This document shows, piece by piece, positions 715-17,114 of a stretch of 17,199 nt of DNA. Below the pieces are notes generated by a model. That model worked only from the letters and a program-made list of their open reading frames with translations. It was not told the origin of the DNA and did not search any database. Both the position numbers and the translations under genes were made by a program. This DNA is from Candidatus Hodarchaeota archaeon (GTDB lineage: Archaea; Asgardarchaeota; Heimdallarchaeia; Hodarchaeales; Hodarchaeaceae): NCBI GenBank assembly GCA_029856365.1, contig JAHQWW010000079.1:1-17199 (forward strand). The letters run 5' to 3'. Each line of letters opens with the position of its first letter. The stretch's first letter is position 1.

Positions 715-727
715 GAAAAAGAAAAAT

Positions 728-1420
728 CCTCCTTACATTCTTCTGAGGAGCCCAATAAATAATACCTATACAAAGCACGATGTCTGGTTAAACTTTACCA
801 CCGATGAAGCAACTATTTGGATTGCTTATTCGTTGGATAGTTCCCCGAATGTTACAATAATTAGGACTATATTATTAAACTCACTTTCTGAGGGTTCTCA
901 TTCAATCATTATTTTTACTAATAATACTGTAGGAAATTTAGGAGTTTCTACCATTAATGGGTTAACTATTGACACCATAGCCCCTGTAATTACCATTATT
1001 AGTCCATCAAACAGTACTTATAATGGGGATATAATTTGGTTAAACTTTACTTGTAGTGAATCCACAGTTTGGATCGGTTACTCATTTGATGGTACGAAAA
1101 ATATTACTATTAATGATAATGTGTCATTAGGAATACTAGATGATGGTTCTCACACAATAATCATCTATACTACTGATTCTGCTGGGAAAGTGGAGTATTC
1201 GGACGTTATTTGGTTTACTATAGATTCTACGTCTCCTATAACAATCCCTACATCTTCTACAACTCCTCCTGCAACTACAACAGAATCGACAATCTCGAGT
1301 ATTATTACTGAAAAGAAAACCACAATGACATCGAAATCAAGCTCCTATTCTAATATTTTCACTACTCTATTAATCATAGTTATAATTGTAGCATGTGTTC
1401 AAAGACATAAGCACAAATAA
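728..1420 (+). pseudogene. 5'-truncated cell-surface protein: two Ig-like repeats, Ser/Thr linker, C-terminal TM anchor
   Basis: The frame of the 833 ORF stays open upstream to a TAA at 692-694. Positions 728-832 encode the start of repeat 1 (PPYILLRSPINNTYTKHDVWLNFTTDEATIWIAYS), which aligns with repeat 2 (APVITIISPSNSTYNGDIIWLNFTCSESTVWIGYS). There is no ATG/GTG/TTG or signal peptide ahead of repeat 1. Confidence 0.7.
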
Positions 1421-1428
1421 ATATTGAA

Positions 1429-1635
1429 CTAGATTGGTGGTTTTGAATCCTTTCGTGACTCAGTTGCAGGTTTCCCCTCAATACCCCAATGAGCTTTAGG
1501 GATTTCGTGAATAATGACTTCTACGGCATGAGAGGGAATTCCAGTTTTCACGAATACATTGGTAATACCTTCAATTATTTCCTTAATTCTCTCTTCAGAG
1601 AACCCTTTCCAAATATGGACATGGACAACGGGCAT
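1429..1635 (-). CDS. 4-oxalocrotonate tautomerase family protein (68 aa)
   Basis: Starts M-P-V-V-H-V, giving the catalytic Pro-1. It carries the family patterns EIIEGITNVF and VEVIIHEIPKAHWGIEG. An SD-like GAGGAG precedes the ATG at 1635, so that is the start rather than 1653. Confidence 0.92.
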   Translation of the reverse strand: MPVVHVHIWKGFSEERIKEIIEGITNVFVKTGIPSHAVEVIIHEIPKAHWGIEGKPATESRKDSKPPI

Positions 1636-1855
1636 ATTACATCTCCTCATCAAATTTGCTATTTGTTATTGATCTAACATTCTCTTGTTTTTGCTCTACT
1701 TGCTTGATTTCTTAAATATTTAAGACTTTAGAGGCCATATTTTTTTGAATAATTTTTTATTTTTATATAATCAAAAGGATTTGTTAATAAAGTACCATAT
1801 AGAGGGATTCAACTGTTCAAGCAAATCAGTCATATTAATGAAAGGAAACAGCTGA

Positions 1856-2737
1856 ATGAAATCTTTGATCCTTCTAGTGGAAGATGAGGAGGCATTACTA
1901 GAATATACTAAATTAATTTTGGAAAATAATGAATATAAGATCATAACAGCCAAAAATGGAGTTGAGGCTTTAGAGATTCTTGAAGCAACTGATCACCTGC
2001 CAGATTTAATTCTTTGCGACATCATGATGCCAAAAATGAATGGTTATGATTTTTTCAAAAAAATGATTGATAATCCTGATTGGAACTTAATTCCTTTTAT
2101 TTTTCTTACAGTAAAAGATTCTCCAGAAGATGTTCGTTTTGGGAAGATGCTTGGAGCTGATGATTACATTGCCAAACCAGTTAATGAAATGGATCTTCTA
2201 GCAAGTATAGCTGGAAAAATCAATCGGGGAAGAAGACATAATATTTTGAGTAGACAGATCAGAAATAAATTATTAACAGATAAAAAGATAGAAATAAGCT
2301 CGAAAAAAGGCGAAGAAAAAAAGACAATTATTGTGTTCTTAGTGGTTTGGGATGACAAGATTGGTCCAAAATTAGAAGTTGTTTATCCAAAGAAAACAAA
2401 ATTACCAATTTCAGTCGAAACTATCGGCATCCAATTATTCCAGACAGCAGGACCAATGTATGGTACCATTGACTATTATGCTGCTCAAGGAGTATTACTA
2501 CGAGTTGCTAATATTGACATGGATAGTTATTTATATTTTTCTACCATTGATGACCATGAAGCCCGTGGAGGAAAACGTCAAATTATGGCTGCAACACTCG
2601 CTCAGAGAATAAATTATTTTGAATCATTAAGAATATCGGAAATTCTTGAAGAGTTTGTAGCTGAGAATAAAGAGGTTCAAGAATATAATATAAAAGAATT
2701 ATGGAAAAGAATTGGAGAGATAATAGCACTTTCATAG
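1856..2737 (+). CDS. Response regulator: receiver domain fused to a uDENN/longin-like C-terminal domain
   Basis: Receiver motifs are intact (LVEDE, DLILCDIMMP, FLT, DDYIAKP). The C-terminal domain has VFLVVWDDKIGPKLEVVYP and FSTIDDHEARGGKR. Confidence 0.9.
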   Translation: MKSLILLVEDEEALLEYTKLILENNEYKIITAKNGVEALEILEATDHLPDLILCDIMMPKMNGYDFFKKMIDNPDWNLIPFIFLTVKDSPEDVRFGKMLGADDYIAKPVNEMDLLASIAGKINRGRRHNILSRQIRNKLLTDKKIEISSKKGEEKKTIIVFLVVWDDKIGPKLEVVYPKKTKLPISVETIGIQLFQTAGPMYGTIDYYAAQGVLLRVANIDMDSYLYFSTIDDHEARGGKRQIMAATLAQRINYFESLRISEILEEFVAENKEVQEYNIKELWKRIGEIIALS

Positions 2738-2752
2738 CAATGAATGTAGGTA

Positions 2753-3494
2753 ACGCTATATCAAGTTTGTTATTTAAATCAACCTTAATTTGATGGGATT
2801 TTTGCAGATTTTTCAATGCCAATTCCTGATCCCCCATTAAGGAGTATGTAATTCCAATATTGTTTAGTATTTTGGAAATGTGATCTTTATCTCCTAGGTC
2901 TTCATATATCGGTAAACTTCGCTTATAGTATTCTAATGCGAGGTTAAATTTTCCTTTTGATTGCTGAATAAGTCCCAAGTTATTTAACGAATCAGCAATG
3001 CCTTGTTTATCATTTTCCTTCTCAGAAATTAATAGACTTTGCTCATGAAATACTGCTGCTTGGTCAAGATTACCCATATACCAATAAATTATACCCGCCT
3101 GGCTCAGTAAATCCTTTTTTCTTACCAGAATTTCTTCTTCATTGCCTAGTTCCACGAGTAGCTTTTCTCCTTCCTGTACTGACTGGACTCCTTCATCCAA
3201 ATTACCTAAACGCCAAGAAATCTCAGCTTTGAGTATGAAAGCATCTAATACTCGTAATAAGTTTACTTCTTTTCTGTCTAGTGATAGTAGCTCTTCAACA
3301 CCCACACGTGCTTTTTCCAGTTCTCCAATTTTGATTCTAAGACGACTTTCAAGTAGAAGACAAGTAAATTTATTATTCATAGTCTGTAATTCCCTTGATG
3401 AGATCGCTTCAACTAATTTAAGAGCCGTTTTATAGTCCCCCTCATTCAATAGGAGTTCTATACGCTGTAATTTCTCATGGATAGTATCGTTCAT
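2753..3494 (-). pseudogene. TPR-repeat protein, probably 3'-truncated
   Basis: Likely start MNDTIHEK at 3494 after GGGAG. TPR units: LSQAGIIYWYMGNLDQA, SLNNLGLIQQSKGKFNLA, ILNNIGITYSLMGDQELA. The pattern breaks after KLDIA (~2753); the rest of the ORF to 2583 is mostly antisense to the regulator gene. Confidence 0.72.
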
Positions 3495-3653
3495 ATCTTT
3501 TTCTCCCAAAACTACTTGAAAACGGTTACATAGAGAAAAACTCTTCTTAATGATTCTAGTTCTTCCAAAAGTCAATATCCTTTATCATTTCTCTAGCTAC
3601 ATGTGGATTTTGCGATATGCATTTTTGATAAACGCACGATTAACCACCATGGA

Positions 3654-3681
3654 AAACACTTGAAATGCTGGATTAACACTT
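3654..3681 (+). repeat. Dispersed boundary motif, copy 1 (AAACACTTGAAATGCTGGATTAACACTT)
   Basis: The core AAATGCTGGATTA matches the other copies; the left arm is degenerate. It lies between divergent genes if the starts are 3494 and 3729. Confidence 0.6.
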
Positions 3682-3728
3682 TTGGAAAAACATTTAAATA
3701 TTCAAACCATATCAAACGAGACCTTAAC

Positions 3729-4553
3729 ATGCGATCTGATATGTTTAATTTTCCTGTGGAAATAAAAAAGCTTGATTGGCCATTTAATTCTAATTTTGAT
3801 GAAAATGAGATTCACCAGCTTCTTAATGATTTTGGAGGATTTTTAAAACCTCAAACAAAAGAAGATCGCTTGGAATTCTATGAATTTACTCGTACAGGAC
3901 TAGGCTTAAGTCGATCAGCCATTGTACTCTTTCTACCAGGTAAAGGACATTTCTCCATCAAAGCATATGCATACCCTCCACCAATAACTCTCTCTCTAAA
4001 GAAACCTCCAGTAAGCTTAGCAAATTATCATCGGATGCGGGTTCAGCATTTAATACATTCTCTTGAAGAGCATTTCCCTGATACACATATCATAGAATCA
4101 AAGTCTGAAAACATGTTAATTATTTGTCAGGAATTTTTATTTCATCCAATATGTGAATTCAATACTCCTCAACAAATCAGCCAATTAATTGAAATTCTTT
4201 GGTTAGCATCACGAGCTCGGATTTTATTAGATTATAATCAAAGTAATTGGCTTGTTTCAGGATTGGAATTCCTTTATTATGTTGACACAGATTATATTGG
4301 CCATTCATATGTTAACCTTGATAGATGTCTTTTAGAGAACTTAAACCAATCGATGGCTTTTTTCACACCAGAAAATGTTAAGTTACTACCTCAAGCTCTT
4401 AAAGGTTTTTCTGAACTCAGTGAAACCCACACTAAGTTTATTAATAGATTTAGAAATGTATTGAAGAAGATTATAGAAAGCTGGGACAAAAATAAGTTAT
4501 CAGAAGGAAATAAACAGAAATATGACATATTTGCTCAAATTGTTAAGGCTTAA
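3729..4553 (+). CDS. Hypothetical protein with probable protein-kinase-like (atypical) fold
   Basis: Motifs occur in kinase order: GLGLSRSA (Gly loop), FSIKAY (beta-3 Lys), ICQEFL (hinge), LLDYNQSNWLV (DxxxxN), YYVDTD (DFG-equivalent). The start is more likely ATG 3729 or 3741 than GTG 3603. Confidence 0.6.
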   Translation: MRSDMFNFPVEIKKLDWPFNSNFDENEIHQLLNDFGGFLKPQTKEDRLEFYEFTRTGLGLSRSAIVLFLPGKGHFSIKAYAYPPPITLSLKKPPVSLANYHRMRVQHLIHSLEEHFPDTHIIESKSENMLIICQEFLFHPICEFNTPQQISQLIEILWLASRARILLDYNQSNWLVSGLEFLYYVDTDYIGHSYVNLDRCLLENLNQSMAFFTPENVKLLPQALKGFSELSETHTKFINRFRNVLKKIIESWDKNKLSEGNKQKYDIFAQIVKA

Positions 4554-4570
4554 AGGCTGGAATAGCCCTT
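4543..4570 (+). repeat. Dispersed boundary motif, copy 2 (TTAAGGCTTAAAGGCTGGAATAGCCCTT)
   Basis: The core AAAGGCTGGAATAG overlaps the stop codon at 4551-4553; the left arm is degenerate. It also forms a small GGCT/AGCC hairpin before a T-rich tract. Confidence 0.55.
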
Positions 4571-4863
4571 TTATTTCATTTTTTCTTTATAATTAAGATG
4601 ATGCCTATAAGGTTGTTAAAAAAACAGCCAAAATCTGAACAGAGTTTTTGATTTCTCAATTGAATAAACGGGAAGAGTTTGTGGATCGAAACTTACAACA
4701 AACTGAAGCATGAGATTGAATATCTAAGGCATATTAAAGATGATGTGAATTAATTTTATTACTAAATTTGCTTATCAAAATTCTAATAGTTTTGAAATCA
4801 AAGAAAACTAACAAAAGATTTAAGAATTTTGAAAATTTTATTTTGCTACTCTTTTTAGGAAGC

Positions 4864-6216
4864 TTGAATTTGCTAAATCAAAAGGAAAAGATTTACTATG
4901 GAATGGGTCGCTTTGGGAGCAGTGTAATGTTAAATTTGGTGTCACTTTTCACTTTATATGTTTATGTAAAGTATTTCGCGTTGTCAGGATTATATACTGG
5001 CTTAGCTGCAGGGTTAGGAAAACTAGCTATAGCTCTTGCTTCTTGGTTAAGTGGTTATTTCAGTGATATTACCCCCAATAATCGATTTGGTAGGCGGAGA
5101 GTGTGGGTAATATTCTTTACTCCAATATTAGCATTCTTTTTTGTAATGCAGTTCTCTCCCCAATTTTTCGTTCCATTAGGTAATGAGTTCCTTGTATTTA
5201 TTTATTTGGCAATCTTTGGGTCTGGTTTCCAGGCTTGTTATGCTCTTTTAACAACTCCCTTTCAAGCTTGGATGCCCGAAGTTGTTCCTGAATCTGACAG
5301 AATTGAAGTTTCAGGTTATCAAAATACTGCTAATTTCATTGGAAATCTGGTGGGGACAGCGCTCGGTTTTCTCCTCCCCTCTTTAATCGGTGATCCTGAA
5401 ACAGCTGACATTCTAGGTTCTGCTGGGTTTATCCTTTTAGCTTGTGTATTGATTATTGCAGGTATTGAATTGATATTCTACCTACCAAGTATTTTCTTTG
5501 TTCCAGATCCCCCACGAGAAAATATTCCTCCTCCAAGTCCGCTAAGAGAGCTCAAAATTATTCTAACCAATAGGAACTACGTCTCATGGATTATGGTAAA
5601 CGGAGTTCACACCATTGGTCTAACTTCACTAGCAACAATAGTATTAATCTACATTGAAGATGTGTTACAATTTGAAGTTACTGAGTACATTATCTTTGGA
5701 ATATGCTTGTTCGGAACTCTTATTCTGATGTTTATCTTTTGGGGATATTTCTCTAATCGTTATTCGAAAACTAGAACCTACCTTGTATCACAACTGTATC
5801 TTGCACTTGTGTTACCATCGACTCTAATTGTTGGACAGGGCGTTATACCGTTATCGTTATTAATTCAAGGAATAATTTTTGCTCTCCTCCTAGCAATCGG
5901 GATGTCAGGTTACTTCATACTACCTTACGCTATTATGGGTGACATTGTCGAAAAGGACGAAAAGGATACTGGTGAGACTCGCTCTGGACATTATACTGGC
6001 TTTTTTGGATTACCACTTAACATCTTTCAAGCAGGAGCAGTCATCCTCACAGGTATTCTGGTCGATGAAGAGCTTCTTCCTCTAGTTGCTGGGGAAGAAT
6101 ATACTGTTGGACTTATTCTCTGGGGGCCAGTATGTGGGATCTTTATCTTAATAGCTACAATATTATTTTATTTTTTGGTCAATGCTGATCCTCTAAAAAA
6201 TGCAAAGAATCTGTAA
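4864..6216 (+). CDS. MFS transporter, glycoside-pentoside-hexuronide (MelB/GPH-like) family
   Basis: About 12 TM helices with family motifs EKIYYGMG, GYFSD...RFGRRR, PFQAWMPE...R and MGDIVEKDEKDTGETRSGHYTG. The likely start is TTG 4864 (or 4870) after AGGA. Confidence 0.9.
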   Translation: MNLLNQKEKIYYGMGRFGSSVMLNLVSLFTLYVYVKYFALSGLYTGLAAGLGKLAIALASWLSGYFSDITPNNRFGRRRVWVIFFTPILAFFFVMQFSPQFFVPLGNEFLVFIYLAIFGSGFQACYALLTTPFQAWMPEVVPESDRIEVSGYQNTANFIGNLVGTALGFLLPSLIGDPETADILGSAGFILLACVLIIAGIELIFYLPSIFFVPDPPRENIPPPSPLRELKIILTNRNYVSWIMVNGVHTIGLTSLATIVLIYIEDVLQFEVTEYIIFGICLFGTLILMFIFWGYFSNRYSKTRTYLVSQLYLALVLPSTLIVGQGVIPLSLLIQGIIFALLLAIGMSGYFILPYAIMGDIVEKDEKDTGETRSGHYTGFFGLPLNIFQAGAVILTGILVDEELLPLVAGEEYTVGLILWGPVCGIFILIATILFYFLVNADPLKNAKNL

Positions 6217-6228
6217 TTTAAATGTACG

Positions 6229-6256
6229 GACGTCATCAAAGGCTGGATTAGATAAG
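6229..6256 (+). repeat. Dispersed boundary motif, copy 3 (GACGTCATCAAAGGCTGGATTAGATAAG)
   Basis: Ungapped match to the consensus, 12 bp after the MFS stop, between convergent genes. Confidence 0.75.
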
Positions 6257-6366
6257 AAAAGTATCTACTAGCTATAGATAAACTAATTCAACAATATAAG
6301 CTTTTTTCTTGTCTAAATGATATGAATAGAAATTTCTATAGAACCAATTGCATTTCCAAGTTCTAT

Positions 6367-7248
6367 TCATTCATGTAACAGGTTCTGTTCATATTGGCAA
6401 ATTATTTTTGCTAACAAGTCTAGGGTAATTCCATTTTGGTAAGAAATTTCAATGAACTGTTGTCCTGACTTAGATAGAATTTTAACTCCTGCTCCTGTTC
6501 GTGTTTTAATGTATGAACAGATTTCTTTCAATAAGTCTTTAGCTGTTGAAGTTAATGGAATAACCTCATAATTTGAGGCCTTTCGATTATCTTTTAGGTG
6601 AAATTTATCAGTTTTTCGTGCTAAAGCGAATGTCTCAGTGTGATTACTTTTTGGGAAATCGAATATCGCTGCAATATTCTTCATAATTTCATCGAAAGAG
6701 CTTTTTGTCGCGCAAATCGGGCATTTTCCCGTCAATTTGAGGCTTTCAGCAAAATGAGGTGGGTGAAAAGGATTCTGACACGTTGGACAATAAATAATTT
6801 CCTCTTCTGATGTTATGGGCTGTCTGCAAACACTACATATCTCTCTTGATTCAGTTTTCTTAACTAGTTGTGATCCCTGCTTTGTGGATCTTTCATCCCA
6901 CTGTTCAACCCAAAAAGCATTATTTCCCCGTTCATCTCTTGAATAACTACTATTTCGGGGTCTTGTGGGATTTGATACTAATAATCTATCACCTTTCTTA
7001 AGAGAGGCAGCCAGATTCATATTATATGTATATCCCTGGTCACCCCAGATATACAACGTTCTAACTATTGAATAGAGGTTATCTGTGACTCGCAGCAATC
7101 GGTATGGTGCTGGTCCATATGTTTTCTTTTCTGAACACCTTTCGAAAACTAGACATTCAAATTCTATGTCCATGCGTGTTCCTTCAGGATATGTTTTAGA
7201 ATCTAATAAGGAAATTGCTTCTAGAAAACTGACTTTTCTAAGAACCAT
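6367..7248 (-). CDS. Hypothetical protein: putative OB-fold plus RING-like zinc finger
   Basis: Zinc finger C-x2-C-x12-C-x2-C-x4-H-x2-H-x10-C-x2-C (CSVC...CPTC...HPPH...CPIC). The N-terminal RLLRVTD...LYIWGD...LKKGDRLLVSNP resembles RPA-type OB-folds. Confidence 0.65.
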   Translation of the reverse strand: MVLRKVSFLEAISLLDSKTYPEGTRMDIEFECLVFERCSEKKTYGPAPYRLLRVTDNLYSIVRTLYIWGDQGYTYNMNLAASLKKGDRLLVSNPTRPRNSSYSRDERGNNAFWVEQWDERSTKQGSQLVKKTESREICSVCRQPITSEEEIIYCPTCQNPFHPPHFAESLKLTGKCPICATKSSFDEIMKNIAAIFDFPKSNHTETFALARKTDKFHLKDNRKASNYEVIPLTSTAKDLLKEICSYIKTRTGAGVKILSKSGQQFIEISYQNGITLDLLAKIICQYEQNLLHE

Positions 7249-7428
7249 CTTTACATTTCCAATTGATTATTGTTTGATCTTCTTGAGCTGGCAAAATACT
7301 TCGTCACTTAAAATTTTATTTTTTCAATTTTCAACCTTATTTATTTCTTATGTCAAGTGAGATACAGCAAAAGAGAGTGATTTTGATATTCTAGTCACTG
7401 TTGATCTTTATGATAATTTCAATTTATC

Positions 7429-7456
7429 AACTTTGCGAAAGGCTGAATTAAAACCC
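7429..7456 (+). repeat. Dispersed boundary motif, copy 4 (AACTTTGCGAAAGGCTGAATTAAAACCC)
   Basis: Ungapped match to the consensus, between divergent genes. Confidence 0.72.
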
Positions 7457-7563
7457 ATATTTTGACTAGAAAGAGTATATATTTGAGTAGTATGAAAATG
7501 TGAGAAACAATTGAGAAATCAATTCTTAAAAAGTCAAACTAATTCCATCTGTGTCGAAGGATT

Positions 7564-8103
7564 ATGACGAGTACTCAAATACCAATAAAAATCTGTGTAA
7601 TGAGTAATCCTAATACTATTGCCACCGATCTCCTACAGGATTACACAGGGGATGCACCAACTAGGGAGGTACTTATCGAGGGTAAGTATAATTTCATTAA
7701 AGAAATCGATGCAGATAACTTCCACATTAGTGTTTACTTAAGTCAGCTCTTTAGTCAGGAGTCTCTTAAAAAGATTAGAGAAAAACATTATCGAGGAGCT
7801 ATAGGAGTAATCTATATTTATCAGAAGAATGATAATTCATCATTTAAATCAGCACAATCTTTGTACAATGAATTCAAACAGCTTGAATTCTTTTCTGATT
7901 ACCAAATAATATTTCTTGGAATTTTGGATAGGGAAGTGGCTAATACTGATATTAATCCACTTCTGAAAGAAAATAAAATTACTTATCTTGAAGTGATGGA
8001 AGGAAACGTTCAAACGTTTGATAAAATAATTCGATCAATCATTTCTCACTCCAGTTATTTCCAAGCAATGACCCAAGGATCATGTGACCTTTCCGTGATT
8101 TAG
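7564..8103 (+). CDS. Degenerate Rab/Ras-like small GTPase (probable pseudo-GTPase)
   Basis: The scaffold pattern is kept (IKICVM, QESLKKIREKHYRGAIGVIYIY, SSFKS, IIFLG, TYLEV, NVQTF), but the G1, G3 and G4 motifs are replaced. Confidence 0.75.
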   Translation: MTSTQIPIKICVMSNPNTIATDLLQDYTGDAPTREVLIEGKYNFIKEIDADNFHISVYLSQLFSQESLKKIREKHYRGAIGVIYIYQKNDNSSFKSAQSLYNEFKQLEFFSDYQIIFLGILDREVANTDINPLLKENKITYLEVMEGNVQTFDKIIRSIISHSSYFQAMTQGSCDLSVI

Positions 8104-8249
8104 TACTGTGAGATCCTCAATTTAGATAACTACTGAACGTTCGTATATAGAGATCCTGTCATAACACTGTCAATTTACTGATATTTTAGATTATTATTTA
8201 TTAATATTTATAAATCTAGAAGACTCCATCAGGAATATAGGAGAAAAAA

Positions 8250-10046
8250 ATGAAAATACTTTGTATTACTGGGAGATTATCTATTGGAATAATACTTTTA
8301 AGCTTAATAGTAGTTATCAATTTTGTAAATTTGGATACTACACTCAACCTACCTATATCATCAAATAATATATTAAAAAGTTGTACTAGAGAAGGTTACA
8401 CCTTTATTTGGGACGAATTTGACGGAGCTCCTGGTAATCAACAGGGTGATGATAGTGTGGTCTTTGGTTCTTCGTTTGGGCCATACCATAACTATTCTGA
8501 ACTTGTCAAAAAGCTAAAGAACCTCAATACTACATATCCAGAGATTATTGAGCTCTTTTCGATAGGAAAGACCTATTTTGGGCGAGACATTTACTGTGTT
8601 CGAATCACTAATGAATCAATTGCACTTCCGAAAACTGAAGTTGTGATCGTTGGTCAACACCACGCTCATGAGCAGATCACGGTTGAAAATGCCCTTTATT
8701 TCATCGATAAAGTAGTATTTGATTTCTTATCATCTTCTGTATTACTTCAGAACCTTTTAAACACTAAAACGATTTATGTGATCCCTAGTCTTAATATCGA
8801 TGGCGCCGAACTTGTGAGTCAATTTCCCTGGCAGAGAAAAACTTCACGGCCTATCGACGAAGACGGAGATGGTGTTGAGGATGAATATGAAGCGCAAGAT
8901 ACCAATAAGGACGGGTATATTGATCGATTAATTGATGAGTTTAACAACTTTGTTGGGTATGAAGGAATAGATCTTGATGGGGACGGGTTAATTGGAAACG
9001 ATGCCCCAGGTGGCGTCGATCCTAATCGTAACTATGCTTACCAGTTTGGGGATCTAACAGGCGCTTCCAATAATCCTTCCTCCTGGAATTACCACGGGCC
9101 CAAAGCATTTTCTGAAAATTGTACAGCACGATTTCGTGATTTTGTAATGCAAAGGAATTTTGTCACTGCAGTCTCCCTACATTCTGGAATGGATTATACT
9201 ATGATATTAAGTCCTTGGGCGTACAAGTGTGAATTGCCAACAGGAATAGATAGAGACTTGTACATTAGCACAGGGACAAAACTGCAAGAACTAACAGGAT
9301 TTTCATATGCGACTGAGGACATTTATGCTTGTTCTGGTGAATGGGCAGACTGGATGTACAGCCACCCTAATGGAACGCTTCTTGCCTTCACGTTTGAGAC
9401 CTATGGAAATCCTTCAGCATTCTATTCAATATATAATGACACAACTGAATATCATCACCAACGTGGTGTGTGGGATTATTGTAATCCACCAGCAGATGAA
9501 GTGATTGATAATTGTGCTCAAGTCTATCCAGGACTCTTTTTCATGGCGGAAGAAGCCCCCTATCTATCAATCCAAACTAATAATCAACAATTAGGGGATT
9601 ATCTCCAAATTAAAGTTATTGTTACTAATCCTTCATTATATGTCCGAACAAATGGTAGTATTACCCTCAACTGTACGGTTTCCCAAGTCGCAGGCTTGAC
9701 TTTTCTCAATACAACACATATAATGAATCTTGGTGAACTAGAAGCGAAATCTAGCATTCCAACCACATTTGTATTTTCAATTGACCAACCTGACTATTCA
9801 ATACATATAAACTTACGAGCATATGGTCCAAAAGTTGGGGATGCAGTAACTGAATACGATTTACATTCTTCTCAGATAACAACAACTACTACAACGTCAA
9901 TCTCTACAACCTCAAGTACTACTTCAGAAGTTCTACGAACCAATAAAACCATTGATCAAATAACAACAGGATTTAACATCACTGGATTGGCATTCTTACT
10001 AATATTGCTTATTGGAATTAAAAATAGAAAGAAATTCGAAAAATAG
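8250..10046 (+). CDS. Secreted, membrane-anchored M14 zinc carboxypeptidase
   Basis: N-terminal signal/TM; HAHE (HxxE), WQRKT, GVDPNRNY, SLHSG and TFE (catalytic Glu); Thr/Ser linker; TGF-TM-KNRKK tail. An SD-like GGAG lies upstream. Confidence 0.93.
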   Translation: MKILCITGRLSIGIILLSLIVVINFVNLDTTLNLPISSNNILKSCTREGYTFIWDEFDGAPGNQQGDDSVVFGSSFGPYHNYSELVKKLKNLNTTYPEIIELFSIGKTYFGRDIYCVRITNESIALPKTEVVIVGQHHAHEQITVENALYFIDKVVFDFLSSSVLLQNLLNTKTIYVIPSLNIDGAELVSQFPWQRKTSRPIDEDGDGVEDEYEAQDTNKDGYIDRLIDEFNNFVGYEGIDLDGDGLIGNDAPGGVDPNRNYAYQFGDLTGASNNPSSWNYHGPKAFSENCTARFRDFVMQRNFVTAVSLHSGMDYTMILSPWAYKCELPTGIDRDLYISTGTKLQELTGFSYATEDIYACSGEWADWMYSHPNGTLLAFTFETYGNPSAFYSIYNDTTEYHHQRGVWDYCNPPADEVIDNCAQVYPGLFFMAEEAPYLSIQTNNQQLGDYLQIKVIVTNPSLYVRTNGSITLNCTVSQVAGLTFLNTTHIMNLGELEAKSSIPTTFVFSIDQPDYSIHINLRAYGPKVGDAVTEYDLHSSQITTTTTTSISTTSSTTSEVLRTNKTIDQITTGFNITGLAFLLILLIGIKNRKKFEK

Positions 10047-10065
10047 ATCAGGAAAGGATATACCC

Positions 10066-10093
10066 AACTTCGTAAAAGGCTGGATTACCACCT
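10066..10093 (+). repeat. Dispersed boundary motif, copy 5 (AACTTCGTAAAAGGCTGGATTACCACCT)
   Basis: The first 22 nt match the consensus fully; 19 bp after the peptidase stop. Confidence 0.8.
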
Positions 10094-10457
10094 TCACTTA
10101 CGTATTCAATATCCTCACTCAGAAATGCAAGGAAATATGAGTAACTTCTTACACAAAGACAAAAAGTATTTAAAGTCCCCTACTAGGCAAGAGTTGAAAA
10201 AAGATATCATCCCTTTTGTAATAGGCATCTATCAACAACTCTAACCTCTTAGTAAGCTTTTGTTACTAAAAATCCTCTTTCACTAGATTTTCCTAGATAG
10301 GCTGCCAAGAAAAATATTATCAGTTAACAGCTCAATACGAATAACTCAAATTCCCCTTTAAAAATGGATTGAACAACATTAATTGGTAATTATTATAAGG
10401 TACAACAATTTCGTCTATGCTTGGTTGATTTTTCAAATTATTCAAAAGGGAAAAAAA

Positions 10458-13118
10458 ATGTCTAAATTGAGAATTATCAAGATTGTAGTAGTTTTTATAT
10501 TTTTAATGACTTTGATTCCAGTATCTTCGATATTAGCAACCGTTCAACAAACACCCATTATTTTTATAGAAGAGATTACAGATTCACTTGATCCAGGGAC
10601 ATATGAGCCATGGGATTATTATATACTCCCTCCTGGTACAAGTTTTGAGGACATCGAATATTGGGGTACGTCTACAGATTTAGTGGAATATACTTTTGTT
10701 GATGGCGGTCAAAATTTTTTTGATTTTGATGATATCTTTCCATTCGACCTGATAAGAGGTAATATGGTTCCAGGGAATTTAGAAGATGAGTTATTAGAAA
10801 ACGATTTATATTATAGTAATCATAATTTCTTCCCATCAATTTCCTATCCAAGAGCAGTCAGGATTGCTAGCAATAAAAATCCTGTATTCAATAAGACTGA
10901 GCTGAAACCTATAAGTTTACATATGAATTATTCTACTACTTTCTTTGCAGAAGATGGAGTAGATTATTGGGGTTATGTAGATAGTGCTGATCCGTTCTAT
11001 TTGGATGTTACCTTTAGTGCTACCAATGTAAGGGGAACTATATCCTTCGAATCTGCGTATCCCCCAACACCAGGATATTTTGTTGGGATACCTAACAACA
11101 AAATGACCTATCCAATTTTTCCAAAGAATGAAAGCTTACTTGAATTTACATTAAGTAATCTAAATGGTTCTAGTTTAGTGACTTTGACTCCCCATTTATG
11201 GACTTTCCCAACTTGGCTTCCAACACTAGAATTAAACAATTTAACTACTGGAAAACTGAATCAAGGACAACCTTGGTATTATAATGAGACCACAGATCAA
11301 TTTACTGAACCTGACTCTGAATTCTTCAGCACCAGGATGTTCACTCTACCCCTTATCAAAGGTAAATACTATCGATTTACAGCTATTTTTGACATGGAAG
11401 ATGTCAAACCAGGAGTGACAAGTAGTGAACCATACAGATTTTTAATTGGTGACCATTATGATGTTATTAGTGGTTTTATCGATCAGGATGGCATGATAAT
11501 TCGTGCACGAGAGTCGGAAAACGCAACTCTTGTCTTATATTCACCAGGTGAAGCAAATGGACAATATTTTATCTTTTACCAAGAAGTACCTTCAACCGAA
11601 AAAACTGAGACCAGTCCATTACAATTGAACACAGATATAACATTAGAATATGATATCTTCTATACTTTTTCGTTCAATGTTCCTAACATGATGGCGATAA
11701 ACTGGACTAATGTAGCCAATCCATTTGATCTCACTTTTTATATTCAAGGAGTTCTTCCAGATGAATGGATTCCTATAATAGATGAGAATTTCTTTGAGCC
11801 AGAACGAGGCAACTTGTATGGTGATAGTGTAGGTGACATTGCTACAGATCATGAAGCTGATCCAAATTGGCGGTATATGCCAGCAGGGTCTTATGCTATA
11901 CAACTTGACAAAGTAAATAATATCGATTATGAAATACGATTTACTACCATTCCAATTCAGCAACCTGGCACTATTCAAGTAAACCAAGACAGCCTTTTTG
12001 CAATTGAGCTCCCAATAGTACGCAATCGACTTAACTGGGTCAACCTTTCTACTGATGATCAAATCTTTCCTATTCAAGCAGTACTATATGAGTGGACTTT
12101 TGTTGGCAAATATAATGAACAAATTGCTTCGAGGACATTTAGTGGATGGTTTGGCAATCAAAATGAAACTATTACCCCAGGTGTTTGGGAAGCATGGAAT
12201 TATAATAATTCCATTATAAACGCGTTACTTCCTACTCGCAATTATGAAGTACCAATCTTAATGATAAGACCCTATGCTGCAATCCAAAATATAACTGCTG
12301 ATCCATATGACACTTTTTCAGCTTCTCTTACAGTCAACACAAATGTAGCAACAAGCCAATCAACATGGGATTTACGTACTTTGGATACTTCATCCATACC
12401 AACCTTAACAGGCTTAACTTTAGATATACCCACGGATTATTTATATTCAGGGCAACAATTTTTCATTCCAGTGTCAGCAATTAGTTCAACAACTTCATTT
12501 ACTATCAATAATGCTTATACCACGGGTGATAACCAGCTTTATGGTATTCCTCTAACTTTAGATCCATACAGCATATACAACATTACGGTGTACCTTATTG
12601 GTAATTATTCAACTTATGATGGAGTAGTGATTGATCAACCCTTTGAATTTCTAAATGCAACCTTTGAAGATTCTCAGATTTTTGTGCATGGCGGAAATTT
12701 ACGAGATTTAGAGATTTTTGAATCTTATTCAGAGGATTTTGATGATACATCGATTTGGAGGTCTCTTCTCATTCTCACAGTTTCAGGTACTTCCTATCTC
12801 TATATTGATCTTGCAAGACAGGGCCCAGGTGTTCCAGGCAAATATAATCTAACAATGCAGGTAGTAATTACAAAACTAAATTTACCGAGCATAGAGTTTC
12901 AATTGGATACTGAATATGATCCAACGGTTAGTAATCAAGAAGTATTTGTAGAAGAGTTCCTTGTTTACGAGATTATACCTCCTGAAATGATGGAAGACAC
13001 ATCAGTACCATCTGAATTCCCATTTGAAGTTTTACTACTCATTGGTGGCGGTGGGGTAGTCATAACAGGAGGAGCAGCAGCAATAGTGTACTTTAGGCGA
13101 AAACGAAGCGGTTTTTAG
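10458..13118 (+). CDS. Large secreted cell-surface protein of unknown function (886 aa), C-terminal TM anchor
   Basis: The likely start MSKLRIIK at 10458 gives a classic signal peptide. The protein is acidic, aromatic-rich and beta-rich with many N-x-S/T sequons, and ends in a Gly-rich TM followed by RRKR. Confidence 0.8.
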   Translation: MSKLRIIKIVVVFIFLMTLIPVSSILATVQQTPIIFIEEITDSLDPGTYEPWDYYILPPGTSFEDIEYWGTSTDLVEYTFVDGGQNFFDFDDIFPFDLIRGNMVPGNLEDELLENDLYYSNHNFFPSISYPRAVRIASNKNPVFNKTELKPISLHMNYSTTFFAEDGVDYWGYVDSADPFYLDVTFSATNVRGTISFESAYPPTPGYFVGIPNNKMTYPIFPKNESLLEFTLSNLNGSSLVTLTPHLWTFPTWLPTLELNNLTTGKLNQGQPWYYNETTDQFTEPDSEFFSTRMFTLPLIKGKYYRFTAIFDMEDVKPGVTSSEPYRFLIGDHYDVISGFIDQDGMIIRARESENATLVLYSPGEANGQYFIFYQEVPSTEKTETSPLQLNTDITLEYDIFYTFSFNVPNMMAINWTNVANPFDLTFYIQGVLPDEWIPIIDENFFEPERGNLYGDSVGDIATDHEADPNWRYMPAGSYAIQLDKVNNIDYEIRFTTIPIQQPGTIQVNQDSLFAIELPIVRNRLNWVNLSTDDQIFPIQAVLYEWTFVGKYNEQIASRTFSGWFGNQNETITPGVWEAWNYNNSIINALLPTRNYEVPILMIRPYAAIQNITADPYDTFSASLTVNTNVATSQSTWDLRTLDTSSIPTLTGLTLDIPTDYLYSGQQFFIPVSAISSTTSFTINNAYTTGDNQLYGIPLTLDPYSIYNITVYLIGNYSTYDGVVIDQPFEFLNATFEDSQIFVHGGNLRDLEIFESYSEDFDDTSIWRSLLILTVSGTSYLYIDLARQGPGVPGKYNLTMQVVITKLNLPSIEFQLDTEYDPTVSNQEVFVEEFLVYEIIPPEMMEDTSVPSEFPFEVLLLIGGGGVVITGGAAAIVYFRRKRSGF

Positions 13119-13130
13119 GTTTTAGTATTA

Positions 13131-13155
13131 TTTCCCTCTTCCTTTTTTTTCTCTT
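13131..13155 (+). terminator. Pyrimidine/T-rich tract, candidate archaeal-type terminator
   Basis: TTTCCCTCTTCCTTTTTTTTCTCTT shortly after the stop at 13118. Confidence 0.4.
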
Positions 13156-13258
13156 AACTGTTTAGAATGTTTGAATTCTCGAATTTAAAGAGTTGATTCT
13201 TTATAGATTCGTAATAACATTACAGGTGACTCCCTCCTAAGCGATTTTGTAGTTCTAA

Positions 13259-13286
13259 GTTTCCTATGAAACCTGGATTAAAGTGA
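13259..13286 (+). repeat. Possible degenerate copy of the boundary motif (core CTGGATTA only)
   Basis: GAAACCTGGATTAAAG in the gap before hcp; the left arm does not match. Confidence 0.3.
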
Positions 13287-13397
13287 TAATGCCAATTATA
13301 AGAAAGATTGTAACCCATCCAAATTTCTTTCTGCTAGAGGTTAATTTTATATATAGTATCAAGCTTTTTTTCATATTTCACATGGAGATACTCTAAA

Positions 13398-14021
13398 ATG
13401 ACTTTTCAACGTAAAAATCAAAAAATAAAAGGAAGTTTTGCTGCTGGTCTTTTTTTCATTTTTGTCAGCAGTATTATCTTATTATCAATAGGAAATAACC
13501 CCACACATGGAGCGGAAACAAGTACTGAGAGATTGCAAACAACACCTGGACAGGTATTTTATGTTCGAATCGAAGGTCAATCGGGTTACATTGATGGCAG
13601 TGTTACCGCAAGTGGATATTTAAGATGGATTGCTGGATATCAATATTCCCATAGTGTATATATTCCCACAGATCCACACAGTGGACAGATGTCAGGGTCA
13701 AGAGTTCATACACCAGTTAAAATCTTGAAGCTCGTTGATAATAGCACTCCACTACTTTTTAAAGCCATGATTCAAATTGAAACATTAATAAGAGTGGAGA
13801 TTCACTTTTTTGATCCTACAGGTGGGCAACATTATTTTACTGTACTGCTAGAAGACGCAAAGATAATATCAATCAGAGAATTTCAACCAAACGTAATGAA
13901 TCCAGACACCTATCAACCCCTCGTGGAAGAAGTTGCATTTGGCTATAAAAAAATCACTTGGACATGGGAAGAACCAAACATTGAATTTTCTGATGATTGG
14001 GTCTACCCTGGGAGCGATTAA
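13398..14021 (+). CDS. hcp: Hcp/TssD (type VI secretion tube protein) homologue with N-terminal signal peptide/TM
   Basis: Hcp motifs appear in order along the whole domain: YVRIEGQ, HSVYIPTDPHSGQMSGSRVHTP, KLVDNSTPLLFKAM, E-L-VEIHF, HYFTVLLEDAKI, EEVAFGYKKITW, SDDW. It has a ~50-aa N-terminal extension with basic n-region and hydrophobic h-region, and an SD-like GGAG. Confidence 0.9.
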   Translation: MTFQRKNQKIKGSFAAGLFFIFVSSIILLSIGNNPTHGAETSTERLQTTPGQVFYVRIEGQSGYIDGSVTASGYLRWIAGYQYSHSVYIPTDPHSGQMSGSRVHTPVKILKLVDNSTPLLFKAMIQIETLIRVEIHFFDPTGGQHYFTVLLEDAKIISIREFQPNVMNPDTYQPLVEEVAFGYKKITWTWEEPNIEFSDDWVYPGSD

Positions 14022-14042
14022 GCTGACTTTGAAGGAATTTCT

Positions 14043-14882
14043 ATGATAATGAAATCCCTCAAACTGACATCCTTCATATGTATTATTCTATTTATTACAT
14101 TGACTCATGTTATCCAAGTCCAAGCCTCATCCCAGACGGATCCCCTTGATGATGTAGTGATCTCAGGCTCGTTAGGCATTGGTGATTATGCTGATTACAT
14201 TGATCTAAAACAGGTCGAAATCCAGGGATCAACAATCATCATTATGACTGATGGTGATTTAACAAATTTAAGTTCAGGAACCTCTACTTATCTTATGGCA
14301 TTATTAAGTGATGATGGTAACCCGATGAACTTTGAAGCGATGATCTTGATCTCACATCCAGCAACAGGACAAGACATTGTGTATTGGATGATTGGTGATC
14401 CTCTAACTGATGTAGGCATAGAATGGGAATCTAGCTACAGTGGAACACATTCACAAATTGATAATAACATTCTTCAACTATTTTTCTTGGAATATTATGA
14501 AATTGTACAATCAGAAGCACTTGTAGTGACCTTCACGGGCGGATCACAATACTTTGATTGGACACCCAATACATATCACAGTAGTTACATCAATACCATC
14601 ATCGATACAATCTCATCTACTCTACCTGTAATAGTTGCCTCTCCTCCTCCACCTACAACAACGACTCCTCCACCACCTCCTCCTACAACAATTACTTCAA
14701 CAATCACCACAAGCAATATCAATCCAGTTATTATAACGACAACAACCAAAGAGACAACGACGGAGGAAACTTTCTCTACAACCTCATCTAGTCCCCCCTC
14801 CCCAACATCAGGGTTTTTATTCATTTCAATAATCCTATTAACACCTTTGATTATCTTGATGAAGCGTCGTAAGAAAAATTAG
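14043..14882 (+). CDS. Secreted surface-anchored protein with Pro/Thr-rich stalk and SGF-TM-basic tail
   Basis: Signal peptide ending VQA, acidic globular domain, PPPPTTTTPPPPPPTT linker, and tail PTSGFLFISIILLTPLIILMKRRKKN. It starts 21 bp after hcp with an SD-like GAAGGA. Confidence 0.82.
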   Translation: MIMKSLKLTSFICIILFITLTHVIQVQASSQTDPLDDVVISGSLGIGDYADYIDLKQVEIQGSTIIIMTDGDLTNLSSGTSTYLMALLSDDGNPMNFEAMILISHPATGQDIVYWMIGDPLTDVGIEWESSYSGTHSQIDNNILQLFFLEYYEIVQSEALVVTFTGGSQYFDWTPNTYHSSYINTIIDTISSTLPVIVASPPPPTTTTPPPPPPTTITSTITTSNINPVIITTTTKETTTEETFSTTSSSPPSPTSGFLFISIILLTPLIILMKRRKKN

Positions 14883-15043
14883 AAGATAATGATAGACAGC
14901 CTCTTATTCAAAGCTTAAGACTAAGTTGATTATTTCTCCCAGTAGCCTTGACTCTATCCTCGTTCACTAGCTCTTACAATGTTACTTCTTAAATTGAGGA
15001 AATACAAATCGAAAAGAAAACCTCTTTTTGTTAAGGACTTCAT

Positions 15044-15082
15044 AACTTCGCAAAATGCTGGTTTAGATTACAAAAATATATA
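15044..15082 (+). repeat. Dispersed boundary motif, copy 6; left member of the 39-bp inverted pair
   Basis: AACTTCGCAAAATGCTGGTTTAGATTACAAAAATATATA is 34/39 identical to the reverse complement of 17131-17169. Confidence 0.85.
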
Positions 15083-15134
15083 TGGTTAAATATGCCCCGA
15101 ACCTTGAAAATCGCCCGTTTTTTGAAAGATAGAG

Positions 15135-15290
15135 CTATTTCTTTCCTCGCGATGAACGGTATGCAGGGTGTTTGGGGTTCAGTTGATTAACTCTATTGTC
15201 TAAAGCATCTTGATACTCTGGGTTATTTGGATTCATAACATCTGAACATTGGTCATTTAGACTACGACCAGCTATAATAGTGGGGGTCAT
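15135..15290 (-). CDS. Small 51-aa Asn/Pro-rich protein with an internal repeat (not in the ORF track)
   Basis: Manual translation: MTPTIIAGRSLNDQCSDVMNPNNPEYQDALDNRVNQLNPKHPAYRSSRGKK*. It has two copies of an (M/L)NPxxPxY unit. Confidence 0.65.
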   Translation of the reverse strand: MTPTIIAGRSLNDQCSDVMNPNNPEYQDALDNRVNQLNPKHPAYRSSRGKK

Positions 15291-15432
15291 AAATCAAGAT
15301 ACAGACCGAATTCTCTTCGCCAATGGAATCAATAACAGTCATCCACGATGATTTTTATGTAACTACTTATGATACATAAGATTTTGCTTTAAACCAAGAT
15401 TTATTATCCATCTTGGTTAATTTGAAGGACTT

Positions 15433-15452
15433 GTATATACCGCGGTCTATAC
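15433..15452. promoter_or_regulatory. Near-perfect palindrome, candidate operator
   Basis: GTATATAC-CGCG-GTCTATAC; the same two arms recur at 17115-17138. Confidence 0.4.
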
Positions 15453-15600
15453 TTATGGATGACATATGAAAAACAGGTAATTGATCTCAAAGGTTTCATC
15501 CAGAATATCGAAAAATCGGTTCTAAAAAAATGATTCTTTACATCAAATAATATAATTTTACTATAACAATTCTTTAAAACCTCTCACTTCTAATAATAAC

Positions 15601-16914
15601 TCATCTAAGAGTATTACTTATTGACAATGATTTCAGGAGGAGAAGAGAGTAAGCTAGTAAACTAATAAATTGAGCTAAACCAAGAATGATTTTCGAAAAA
15701 ATGAATGTTATTATTTTAAAAATCATTGCAGGGTCATTCATCTCTACAGAACTCATTAACATGAAAGAATTAAGAATTGTAGTACTGAACAATAGGAGGG
15801 GACCAAATAGACAAATGTATGATAAAACGCGGCCTATGCTTATTTCAGAAAGATAATTAAAGTGATATTTCAGTATTACAACTATTAAGATTATGATTGA
15901 TGGAATAATTGGGAATAGATTAATGAAAGTCGGAAAAAGGTTTCCAATTGAGGGTAAAATATTTCCTGGTGTACCAGTATAATGAGTAGTGATATTATAT
16001 TTCAAATCAGATGATATAATCGATAGTACGCTGAAAGTTGGAATAGCAATTAACCAAAAGATTTTCTGATTGACGATAGAAAATATTTTTCCTAGCTGTA
16101 GTTCGTCTATTTGATCTTCATTTTTGGATGGAAGATGGTTGATTATGAAAAATACAATACCGAACAGGAAGAAGTAACTCGTTATCCATATGAAAATAAG
16201 AATTCCCATTGTTAGATATGGCTGAATGAATACTATTTCTGGAAAAAACAACTCATTAAACAATAATGCGGTTAATAATTTAGGGAATGATTCCTGATAT
16301 CCCCAAAACGAATACTCCAACAGTATAAATGCTAATACCATGGTGAAAATGCAGAATATCAATAATGAAAAGGAATTAAACAATGCTATTCGAAAAGAAA
16401 TTCTTTTTTTGCTCAAAAGCAGCAAATAATACCCAAGATAGATGAAAGGAAACATTAGTGTGATAGTTAAAAAGAATGGGGAAAATAGATCATAAATTGG
16501 TAACCATGTTATGATTAGAAAAATTAGCATCAATCCTACAATTAGTGTGAATACTTTCATCAATAGAAAGTCATTTCTGAATTTCAGTCTAATATGGGAA
16601 GGAGAGGAGTCGTTTAGAACTATCATCCCTCCTTCGTTATTATTTGCCAGTCGAATTTCATTATTCTCAAATTTTAACAATAAAACATAGATTTTTTGTC
16701 CGAGTGATGTTAACTCATACAATCCCTCTTTATTTTTCCTAATTAAAGAAGAAAGCTTCTCTAAATGAAATGATAATTTACTGGTTGACTCTAATGATAA
16801 TTCCATGAGGATTTCAGAGAACGTCCGCGGTTCATTATCTAATAATTTAATAATTTCAACTCTAATTGGATTTGCTACTAAACTCAAGAGTTTTGCTAAG
16901 TCCTCTGACTCCAT
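15601..16914 (-). CDS. ArsR-type winged-HTH protein fused to a multi-pass membrane domain
   Basis: ANPIRVEIIKLL...TFSEI...LSFHLEKL...YELTSLG followed by about 8 hydrophobic helices; SD-like GAAGGA upstream. Confidence 0.85.
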   Translation of the reverse strand: MESEDLAKLLSLVANPIRVEIIKLLDNEPRTFSEILMELSLESTSKLSFHLEKLSSLIRKNKEGLYELTSLGQKIYVLLLKFENNEIRLANNNEGGMIVLNDSSPSHIRLKFRNDFLLMKVFTLIVGLMLIFLIITWLPIYDLFSPFFLTITLMFPFIYLGYYLLLLSKKRISFRIALFNSFSLLIFCIFTMVLAFILLEYSFWGYQESFPKLLTALLFNELFFPEIVFIQPYLTMGILIFIWITSYFFLFGIVFFIINHLPSKNEDQIDELQLGKIFSIVNQKIFWLIAIPTFSVLSIISSDLKYNITTHYTGTPGNILPSIGNLFPTFINLFPIIPSIIILIVVILKYHFNYLSEISIGRVLSYICLFGPLLLFSTTILNSFMLMSSVEMNDPAMIFKIITFIFSKIILGLAQFISLLAYSLLLLKSLSISNTLR

Positions 16915-17114
16915 ATTCCTTCATATTAATCATAATATCGTATTTTAAATCCATTTTGACAAATAATTCAGGTCAATAAAAATTGACGGTTTCTTTTTTG
17001 GGAAGGATTTCCTAGCAAAATCAAAACAAGAAGTAAATATTGATGTCAAAGTAGATTTAACCTATATAAAGGTCCCAAATTATGATTTAGCTATTTCTAA
17101 TTGTGTTCTGGATT

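Follow-up and report, generated by a model that had tools for sequence, protein, structure and literature searches.

A leader-bearing Hcp-family protein and a putatively anchored partner form a conserved gene pair in Asgard archaea

Introduction

Hcp (TssD) is known as a tube subunit that has no signal peptide, assembles in the cytoplasm and forms part of a contractile weapon, the T6SS (type VI secretion system). An Hcp-family gene with a hydrophobic N-terminal leader in an Asgard archaeon raises the question of what such a protein would do, and on which side of the membrane. The gene lies on contig JAHQWW010000079.1 of Candidatus Hodarchaeota archaeon (assembly GCA_029856365.1), of which positions 1 to 17,199 form the window, that is, the whole stretch of DNA analyzed. 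The first-pass annotation of this DNA had described an orphan Hcp with a Sec-type signal peptide and a role independent of a contractile apparatus. Here it is proposed that the gene is probably one member of a two-gene cell-surface module and not a part of a secretion machine, in which a Sec-exported Hcp, likely a hexameric ring, would be held by a sortase-anchored partner protein.

Identity and fold of the Hcp gene product

The open reading frame (ORF; coordinates of all features in Table 1) has an ATG start and a TAA stop and encodes 207 amino acids (aa). The strings by which an Hcp had been recognized in the first-pass annotation are all found in it, the N-terminal leader included, with PTDPHSGQMSGSRVH at residues 90-104, TPLLFKAM at 117-124, YKKITW at 183-188 and SDDW at 198-201. 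The full-length Hcp domain claimed there is borne out by two family profiles, both above their curated cut-offs: Pfam T6SS_HCP (PF05638), which covers residues 55-190 with the whole of its length (positions 1-129 of 129; 89.7 bits against a cut-off of 23.5, E 2.4e-25), and TIGR03344 for TssD, which matches residues 54-201 (E 2.6e-30, 105.5 bits, cut-off 58.9). In a phmmer search of the PDB, six Hcps aligned collinearly and showed no large insertions, among them Pseudomonas aeruginosa Hcp3 (3he1, E 4.9e-27); the domain is 30-34% identical to the solved Hcps.

The fold was modeled as a single chain with AlphaFold2 (AF2), using eight homologues as input. The predicted local distance difference test score (pLDDT) is about 70-92 across most of residues 55-200 and falls to about 59 at residues 161-170. 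Foldseek placed Escherichia coli Hcp1 (4hkh_A) first, with E 4.3e-15 and a template-modeling (TM) score, TMt, of 0.89-0.92, and the remaining matches are all Hcps (3he1, 6a2v, 5mxn, 1y12). The assignment of the window gene as a full-length, true Hcp is secure.

N-terminal leader and start codon

The barrel is preceded by a leader of 38 residues, which, judged by eye and simple counts, consists of an n-region of net charge +4, a hydrophobic, uncharged core of about 20 residues and a small-x-Gly↓Ala/Thr-Glu site (↓, putative cleavage position). In the AF2 model, residues 7-33 of the leader form a helix of 27 residues at low pLDDT, and the linker that follows is Pro-rich and flexible. Six homologues are closest (193-211 aa, 46-58% identical), all from metagenome-assembled genomes (MAGs) of Hodarchaeales/Promethearchaeota; they keep the hydrophobic core and a c-region of the form (A/V/T)-x-G↓(A/T)-E-(T/M)-S; the basic n-region is also kept, except in the N-terminally shorter P0007. 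The survey of archaeal Hcps for N-terminal signals that had been suggested for this gene was carried out on the Asgard copies, and a basic-hydrophobic leader was found in 34 of 34, with n-region net charges of +1 to +5 and uncharged runs of 16-30 residues. Most Asgard copies also have a polar or acidic linker, from a few to about 20 residues long, after the hydrophobic core. The named bacterial relatives, from Rahnella, Phycisphaerales, Desulfobacterales, Sumerlaeota and Planctomycetaceae, are 163-165 aa long and begin at the barrel, without a leader.

About 20 of the 34 Asgard Hcps carry N-x-S/T sequons just past the hydrophobic core, which would matter solely on the outer face of the membrane. 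In a large paralog clade (L001, L028-L034, L038, L040, L046, L054), the sequon abuts the core, for example in Q-Q-A-N-T-S or Q-V-N-A-S, and is kept across genomes; it is a possible N-glycosylation site that would mark the exposed side.

The leader could in principle arise from a misplaced start, and a true start past the hydrophobic segment had been considered beforehand. After an in-frame stop at 13335, a start first occurs with the ATG at 13398; the next in-frame ATG is residue 98, within the barrel, and no ribosome-binding site accompanies the sole in-frame TTG (residue 46). Because the frame offers no usable start past the hydrophobic segment and the leader is conserved as protein, the leader is regarded as real and translated. 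The NCBI record MCF2140055.1 of Candidatus Harpocratesius repetitus (closed genome, L049 1327-1911) is 163 aa long and starts past the leader, while the open frame with the leader has 194 aa, so that automatic annotation at times conceals the export signal.

Two readings of the leader stand, a Sec-type signal peptide and a signal anchor that stays uncleaved, because the core is long (about 20 residues). The conserved -3/-1 site makes cleavage after Gly38 likely. Thus, what holds of the Sec-type signal peptide described earlier is a conserved export-or-anchor leader.

Conservation of a two-gene cassette

Contrary to the first-pass annotation, the Hcp gene is not an orphan, since it heads a conserved two-gene cassette. 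Of 30 Asgard Hcp loci, 25 have a same-strand gene directly downstream that matches a hidden Markov model (HMM) of the partner, and in two others the gene at this place shares the partner's architecture, giving 27/30. The flanking genes vary among the Hcp loci, and because they differ, the two-gene cassette is taken as the conserved unit. At three loci (L036, L043, L045), the downstream protein exceeds 465 aa and is cut by the locus end.

The same genome has a second cassette on contig C142 (Hcp, L001:1342-1965(+); partner, 2001-2729(+)), which belongs to the larger paralog clade common to most genomes of the host family. Its Hcp has a leader and is 31% identical to the window Hcp, and its partner, which has an S-G-F C-terminal anchor, matches the window partner in BLASTP at 1e-12. 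In a six-frame HMM scan of the whole assembly, Hcp and partner genes both numbered exactly two, and each partner adjoins an Hcp. Identity to the ortholog cassette is 54% for the Hcp and 38-39% for the partner; to the paralog cassettes, it is 27-31% and 22-27%, respectively. Such co-divergence fits the duplication of whole cassettes, as far as can be read from the sequences.

The Hcp gene was found in 26 of 399 Asgard genomes: 18 of 22 genomes of the host family including the host genome (17 of 21 without it), 3 of the 12 genomes of a second Heimdallarchaeia family, 4 of the 14 from the family to which Lokiarchaeum ossiferum belongs, and one elsewhere. The cassette is present in the closed Asgard chromosomes CP070760 and CP070695 and in the closed genome of the cultured L. 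ossiferum, where it consists of NEF87_000442 (Hcp, 189 aa) and NEF87_000443 (237 aa, annotated as 'hypothetical').

Partner protein and its C-terminal anchor

The partner is predicted to consist of a signal peptide, a small beta-sandwich with a short helix, a disordered stalk rich in Thr, Pro and Ser, and a C-terminal sorting signal (Table 1). Its AF2 model has pLDDT of about 70-90 in most blocks and lower values at about residues 165-180, with strands at residues 55-167 and a helix at 180-191; the beta-sandwich has about 120 residues and the globular part about 140. The domain includes an invariant Trp (W128) and, in most members, the motif W-x-[LIV]-[GS]-D-P.

Residues 254-279 align with the NCBIfam model NF045529 (Heimdall-CTERM) over model positions 1-26 of 26, with E 0.016 and 15.6 bits (curated cut-off, 24 bits). 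The model matched four of the seven partners then aligned (best E 2e-4), and the tripartite C-terminal motif is visible in 26 of 26 aligned partners. The genome also encodes a heimdallarchaeosortase (contig C17, L055:801-1580 (+); NF045528, 251.6 bits, cut-off 130, E 6e-75), the presumed processing enzyme for its Heimdall-CTERM surface proteins; the ArtA profile TIGR04125 reaches only 20 bits in this genome. The sole PDB profile match of the partner family covers the Thr-rich stalk and the anchor end, in the Haloferax surface-layer (S-layer) glycoprotein (7ptp, E 0.04), and may be seen as an analogy of layout.

The partner family was assembled from the loci, with 26 partners aligned. Searches of a large protein database gave one and three matches and were uninformative because the low-complexity stalk swamped them. 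The ectodomain matched no family in Pfam, NCBIfam, PHROGs or PADLOC, and Foldseek against the PDB gave nothing at E <= 0.001 for the fold, the top rows being jelly-roll or lectin-like proteins with TM scores of about 0.2. Glucodextran_C (PF09985) is no more than a lead for the ectodomain: the ESM Atlas related the partner to Glucodextran_C clusters (feature score 0.91, 161 shared features), but hmmscan of the 26 partners did not confirm this lead, giving no PF09985, and the best VIA-align match, to the C-terminal module of glucodextranase (1ulv_A, Z 6.8), is within the noise range.

Search for contractile machine genes

Profile scans of the window ORFs (Pfam and NCBIfam) found no T6SS or contractile injection system (CIS) genes, in line with the earlier statement that the window has no sheath, VgrG, PAAR or baseplate genes. 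The wider search for other T6SS or extracellular CIS (eCIS) genes that had been advised was also run. TssC/VipB (PF05943), Phage_GPD/VgrG (PF05954), GPW_gp25/TssE (PF04965) and phage sheath (PF04984) were each found in 0 of 5 genomes; besides the own MAG, this set comprised two closed Hodarchaeales chromosomes and two other relatives. PAAR (PF05488) was likewise found in 0 of 5, here the own MAG and four single-contig genomes, including those of L. ossiferum and Harpocratesius repetitus, and TssC (PF05943) in 0 of 399 Asgard genomes. Positive controls gave matches in the sheath, spike, gp25, PAAR and TssC searches; the gp19 tail-tube profile was silent in the controls and carries no information. 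Because the own genome is 83.6% complete (4.2% contamination), the absence of machine genes rests on the closed genomes. Thus, across the genomes searched, no gene for sheath, spike, gp25 or PAAR points to a complete T6SS or eCIS that could use this protein, a possibility raised beforehand. PHROGs and PADLOC gave no match for the Hcp and partner pair.

Signal-bearing Hcps outside the Asgard archaea

An exhaustive phmmer search gave 2288 Hcp relatives. A hydrophobic N-terminal segment precedes the barrel in 112 of 178 rows of the tree set (about 60% of the nearest relatives in public data), and many of these rows have classic bacterial signals of 22-28 residues with an A-x-A end right before the first strand. 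Exported Hcps thus occur widely, and a signal by itself does not set the archaeal copies apart. Additionally, some single chains carry Hcp domains in tandem, three each in P0014 (538 aa) and P0015 (570 aa), seven in P0030 (1230 aa) and six in P0012 (2164 aa). Three of the four (P0014, P0015, P0030) have an N-terminal hydrophobic signal, and P0012 also has Big_13 and Glucodextran_B-like domains. Such covalently linked domains may make up pseudo-hexamers, which would fit six-fold ring building outside any T6SS and lends circumstantial support to a ring. The literature search gave nothing relevant on exported Hcps, Hcp in Asgard archaea, Heimdall-CTERM or the L. ossiferum locus tags; the NCBI annotation labels the Asgard copies 'T6SS tube protein TssD/Hcp'.

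Provenance and origin of the gene

The Asgard origin of the DNA, first suspected from the window itself, is supported by the closest homologues, all of them from Hodarchaeales/Promethearchaeota MAGs, and by the same cassette on closed Asgard chromosomes, with which the host genome groups. The concern that the contig might be bacterial or chimeric finds no support, since the GC content of the Hcp and partner pair is 37-38%, equal to that of its neighbors, and the contig has archaeal-type genes, including a Ras-family GTPase and a DUF7347 regulator.

An unrooted Hcp tree was built from 178 domains (the top-150 representatives, to which the loci from Asgard archaea and named bacteria were added; 28 Asgard rows, 163 columns). 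In FastTree, the Asgard copies were spread over about seven places, and one clade joined Hcps of Planctomycetota/Desulfobacterota. Holding all 28 Asgard rows together in IQ-TREE gave a tree whose log-likelihood exceeded that of the free quick search by 11.9 units (approximately unbiased test, p-AU 0.62), and multiple transfers, as the FastTree scatter would have it, were not adopted because the Asgard-together tree scored better. A single clade and origin of the Asgard Hcps is thus not rejected by the alignment, and it fits with the shared partner gene. Horizontal acquisition is plausible because the Hcp family is overwhelmingly bacterial; the data point to no particular donor or direction.

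Proposed role at the cell surface

Because the gene encodes a true Hcp with a conserved leader, and no sheath, spike, gp25 or PAAR genes were found, an extracytoplasmic role independent of contraction, as had been put forward earlier, is the best reading. In the module proposed here, the Hcp-fold protein would cross the membrane via Sec by means of its N-terminal leader, with likely cleavage after Gly38. The partner, presumably co-transcribed, would also be exported, and the heimdallarchaeosortase would process its C-terminal tripartite signal, leaving a small beta-sandwich borne by a membrane-anchored Thr/Pro stalk that could be glycosylated. On the outer side, the Hcp domain would most likely assemble into a hexameric ring, as is typical of its family, with the partner holding or positioning it, and no sheath, spike or baseplate would take part. 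From the sequences and models together, we infer export, the cleavage site, ring formation and the contact between Hcp and partner.

Several observations weigh against this module. Adjacency and co-divergence follow from co-inheritance and are not proof of interaction, and in another Heimdallarchaeia family, the three loci noted above have a larger secreted protein in place of the partner, which may represent a different partner type. The Heimdall-CTERM score of the window partner is under its curated cut-off, the own genome is incomplete, and the long hydrophobic core, a 27-residue helix in the model, may keep the leader in place as a membrane anchor.

This last point leads to the alternative that deserves the most attention, considered unlikely on balance, in which the leader stays uncleaved and the Hcp is a type II membrane protein. 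Six chains would then lie as a ring flat on the outer face, tethered by the N-terminal helix and a linker of 15-20 residues, and the partner would be a neighbor and not the tether. The uncharged run is of transmembrane length in all 34 copies, the AF2 helix is continuous, and the large paralog clade, with its sequons after the core, has no clear small-x-small site. However, in the clade of the window gene, the c-region is conserved best within the leader and conforms to the -3/-1 rule, which suggests recognition by signal peptidase, and the exported Hcps of bacteria have classic short A-x-A signals right before the barrel.

Small effectors are said to be carried in the Hcp lumen, as reportedly described by Silverman and colleagues in 2013, and a released Hcp, soluble outside the cell or in the surface space, might similarly act as a carrier or chaperone for small lumen proteins, or as an antagonistic factor with the partner as receptor, cargo or protective factor. 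The globular part of the partner would be of a fitting size for such cargo, and the strict coupling of the pair is like that of effector-immunity pairs; however, no toxin domain is present in the cassette, PADLOC and PHROGs gave no match, and the partner has no enzyme or toxin fold, so that such a function is judged improbable. Far less credit is given to class III (prepilin-type) cleavage at a Lys-Gly before the core, which would yield a pilus-like fiber with Hcp heads. The K-G lies directly before the core in five of the six members of the window clade, but other Asgard clades lack it, the Pro-rich flexible linker between helix and barrel is unlike that of pilins, and the conserved G↓A-E-T-S site downstream favors signal peptidase I; the +1 residues S, G and Y also seem not to fit the archaeal prepilin pattern (FlaFind). 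Least credible of all, and largely refuted, is an artefact of annotation in the leader or contamination of the contig, so that the protein would be either a bacterial contaminant or a tube subunit in the cytoplasm, belonging to a contractile system that escaped detection: the truncated Harpocratesius repetitus record and the completeness and contamination values of the own genome would suit it, but there is no start past the leader, which is conserved as protein, the cassette occurs in closed Asgard chromosomes and has the GC content of its neighbors on a contig with archaeal-type genes, and sheath, spike, gp25 and PAAR were not found in the closed genomes searched for each, nor TssC in any of the 399.

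Going one step further than the preferred module of exported Hcp and anchored partner, it is tentatively suggested, with slightly less confidence than an even chance would give, that the pair is an Asgard surface fitting, also present in the cultured L. ossiferum and so far undescribed, a Sec-exported Hcp ring with a heimosortase-anchored, stalked partner, in which the tube fold is extracytoplasmic and non-contractile and may serve the amorphous protein coat or the cell-cell contacts of these archaea, which are syntrophic and related to eukaryotes. The Asgard surface is poorly understood and central to ideas on how such cells interact with partners; cryo-electron tomography has shown an amorphous protein coat and no S-layer (bioRxiv 10.1101/2025.11.06.686947). 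The export leader, the lack of sheath, spike, gp25 and PAAR genes in the genomes searched and the fixed, putatively anchored partner point to a second, extracytoplasmic role for the Hcp fold. If the suggestion is true, the fitting belongs to a much wider, unstudied class of exported bacterial and archaeal Hcps, and the many signal-bearing copies in bacteria, which pipelines simply call 'T6SS tube protein', suggest a broad phenomenon. The question is directly testable because the pair is present in a cultured species.

Comparison with known systems

Compared with T6SS Hcp/TssD (3he1; Hcp1 of enteroaggregative E. coli, 4hkh; Vibrio cholerae, 5mxn), the window Hcp has the same beta-barrel over the whole domain (TMt about 0.9). 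It differs in the added 38-residue leader and 15-residue linker, in its pairing with a putatively surface-anchored protein instead of VgrG, PAAR or effector genes, and in a host lineage without sheath, spike, gp25 or PAAR in the genomes searched. Signal-bearing Hcps of bacteria and other archaea share the N-terminal hydrophobic signal and the Hcp domain, whereas the Asgard leaders are longer (32-50 residues before the barrel) and come with a polar linker and a conserved partner gene. The tube proteins of eCIS and phage tails distantly share the fold with Hcp; in contrast to those systems, sheath, gp25 and gpD/VgrG were found in 0 of 5 genomes, and the pair has no PHROGs match.

On the side of the partner, the Thr-rich stalk, the small-Gly-Phe motif, the hydrophobic helix and the basic tail resemble those of PGF-CTERM/archaeosortase A proteins such as the Haloferax volcanii S-layer glycoprotein (7ptp), and a dedicated sortase homologue is likewise encoded in the genome of the window. 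This sortase is, however, the Heimdall-specific heimosortase and not ArtA, and the partner ectodomain is one small beta-sandwich of an unnamed family, unlike an S-layer lattice protein.

Genomic context of the cassette

A run of eight T after the upstream surface-protein gene (end at 13118) is a candidate archaeal oligo-T terminator that would part this gene from the Hcp cassette. Together with the TATA-like element before the ATG, it suggests that the Hcp and partner pair has its own promoter.

Table 1. Features of the Hcp cassette and its upstream region in the window (↓, putative cleavage position).
Feature	Position	Strand	Basis or remark
Hcp-family gene, 207 aa, product putatively exported	13398..14021	+	ORF call, family profiles, fold
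Leader, residues 1-38	13398..13511	+	Conservation and composition; ends ...THG↓AETS
Polar linker between leader and barrel, residues 39-53	13512..13556	+	Low pLDDT
Hcp/TssD domain, residues 54-201	13557..14000	+	TIGR03344 (54-201), PF05638 (55-190)
Partner gene, 279 aa	14043..14882	+	21 nt downstream of Hcp gene, same strand
Predicted partner signal peptide, residues 1-28 (...VQA↓SS)	14043..14126	+	Read from sequence; present in 26/26 aligned partners
Partner beta-sandwich and short helix, residues ~50-192	14190..14618	+	AF2 and alignment
Thr/Pro/Ser-rich disordered stalk, residues ~195-257	14625..14813	+	pLDDT ~40-60, mostly <50
Putative C-terminal sorting signal, residues 254-279 (S-G-F, hydrophobic helix, RRKKN tail)	14802..14879	+	NF045529 alignment
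Run of 8 T	13143..13150	+	Read from sequence; candidate archaeal oligo-T terminator
TATA-box-like element TTTTATATATA, ~45 nt before ATG	13345..13355	+	Read from sequence; candidate promoter
GGAG, Shine-Dalgarno-like, 10 nt before ATG	13384..13387	+	Read from sequence

The other ORFs of the window encode major facilitator superfamily transporters, a response regulator, a tetratricopeptide-repeat protein, a Ras-family GTPase, an M14 peptidase, a helix-turn-helix protein and unassigned surface proteins, and no Rfam family matched anywhere in the window. Just upstream of the cassette, the 911-aa ORF at 10383-13118 (+), with a probable start at an internal Met near 10458, encodes a surface protein with a signal peptide, a large ectodomain without a family, and a C-terminal Gly-rich hydrophobic helix followed by an RRKRSGF tail; its gene is not conserved beside Hcp in other loci. 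A 598-aa M14 zinc carboxypeptidase at 8250-10046 (+) (PF00246, E 1.3e-44) lies in the same-strand run with the surface protein and the Hcp cassette. Further upstream are a small Ras-family GTPase at 7564-8103 (+) (PF00071, E 8.7e-7) and, at 6367-7248 (-), an ORF with weak RING/PHD-finger-like matches below the cut-offs, both eukaryote-like and typical of Asgard genomes. Past the partner gene, about 720 nt (14883-15600) contain no ORF of at least 60 aa on either strand, and T-runs at 15025-15029 and 15118-15123 are possible terminators.

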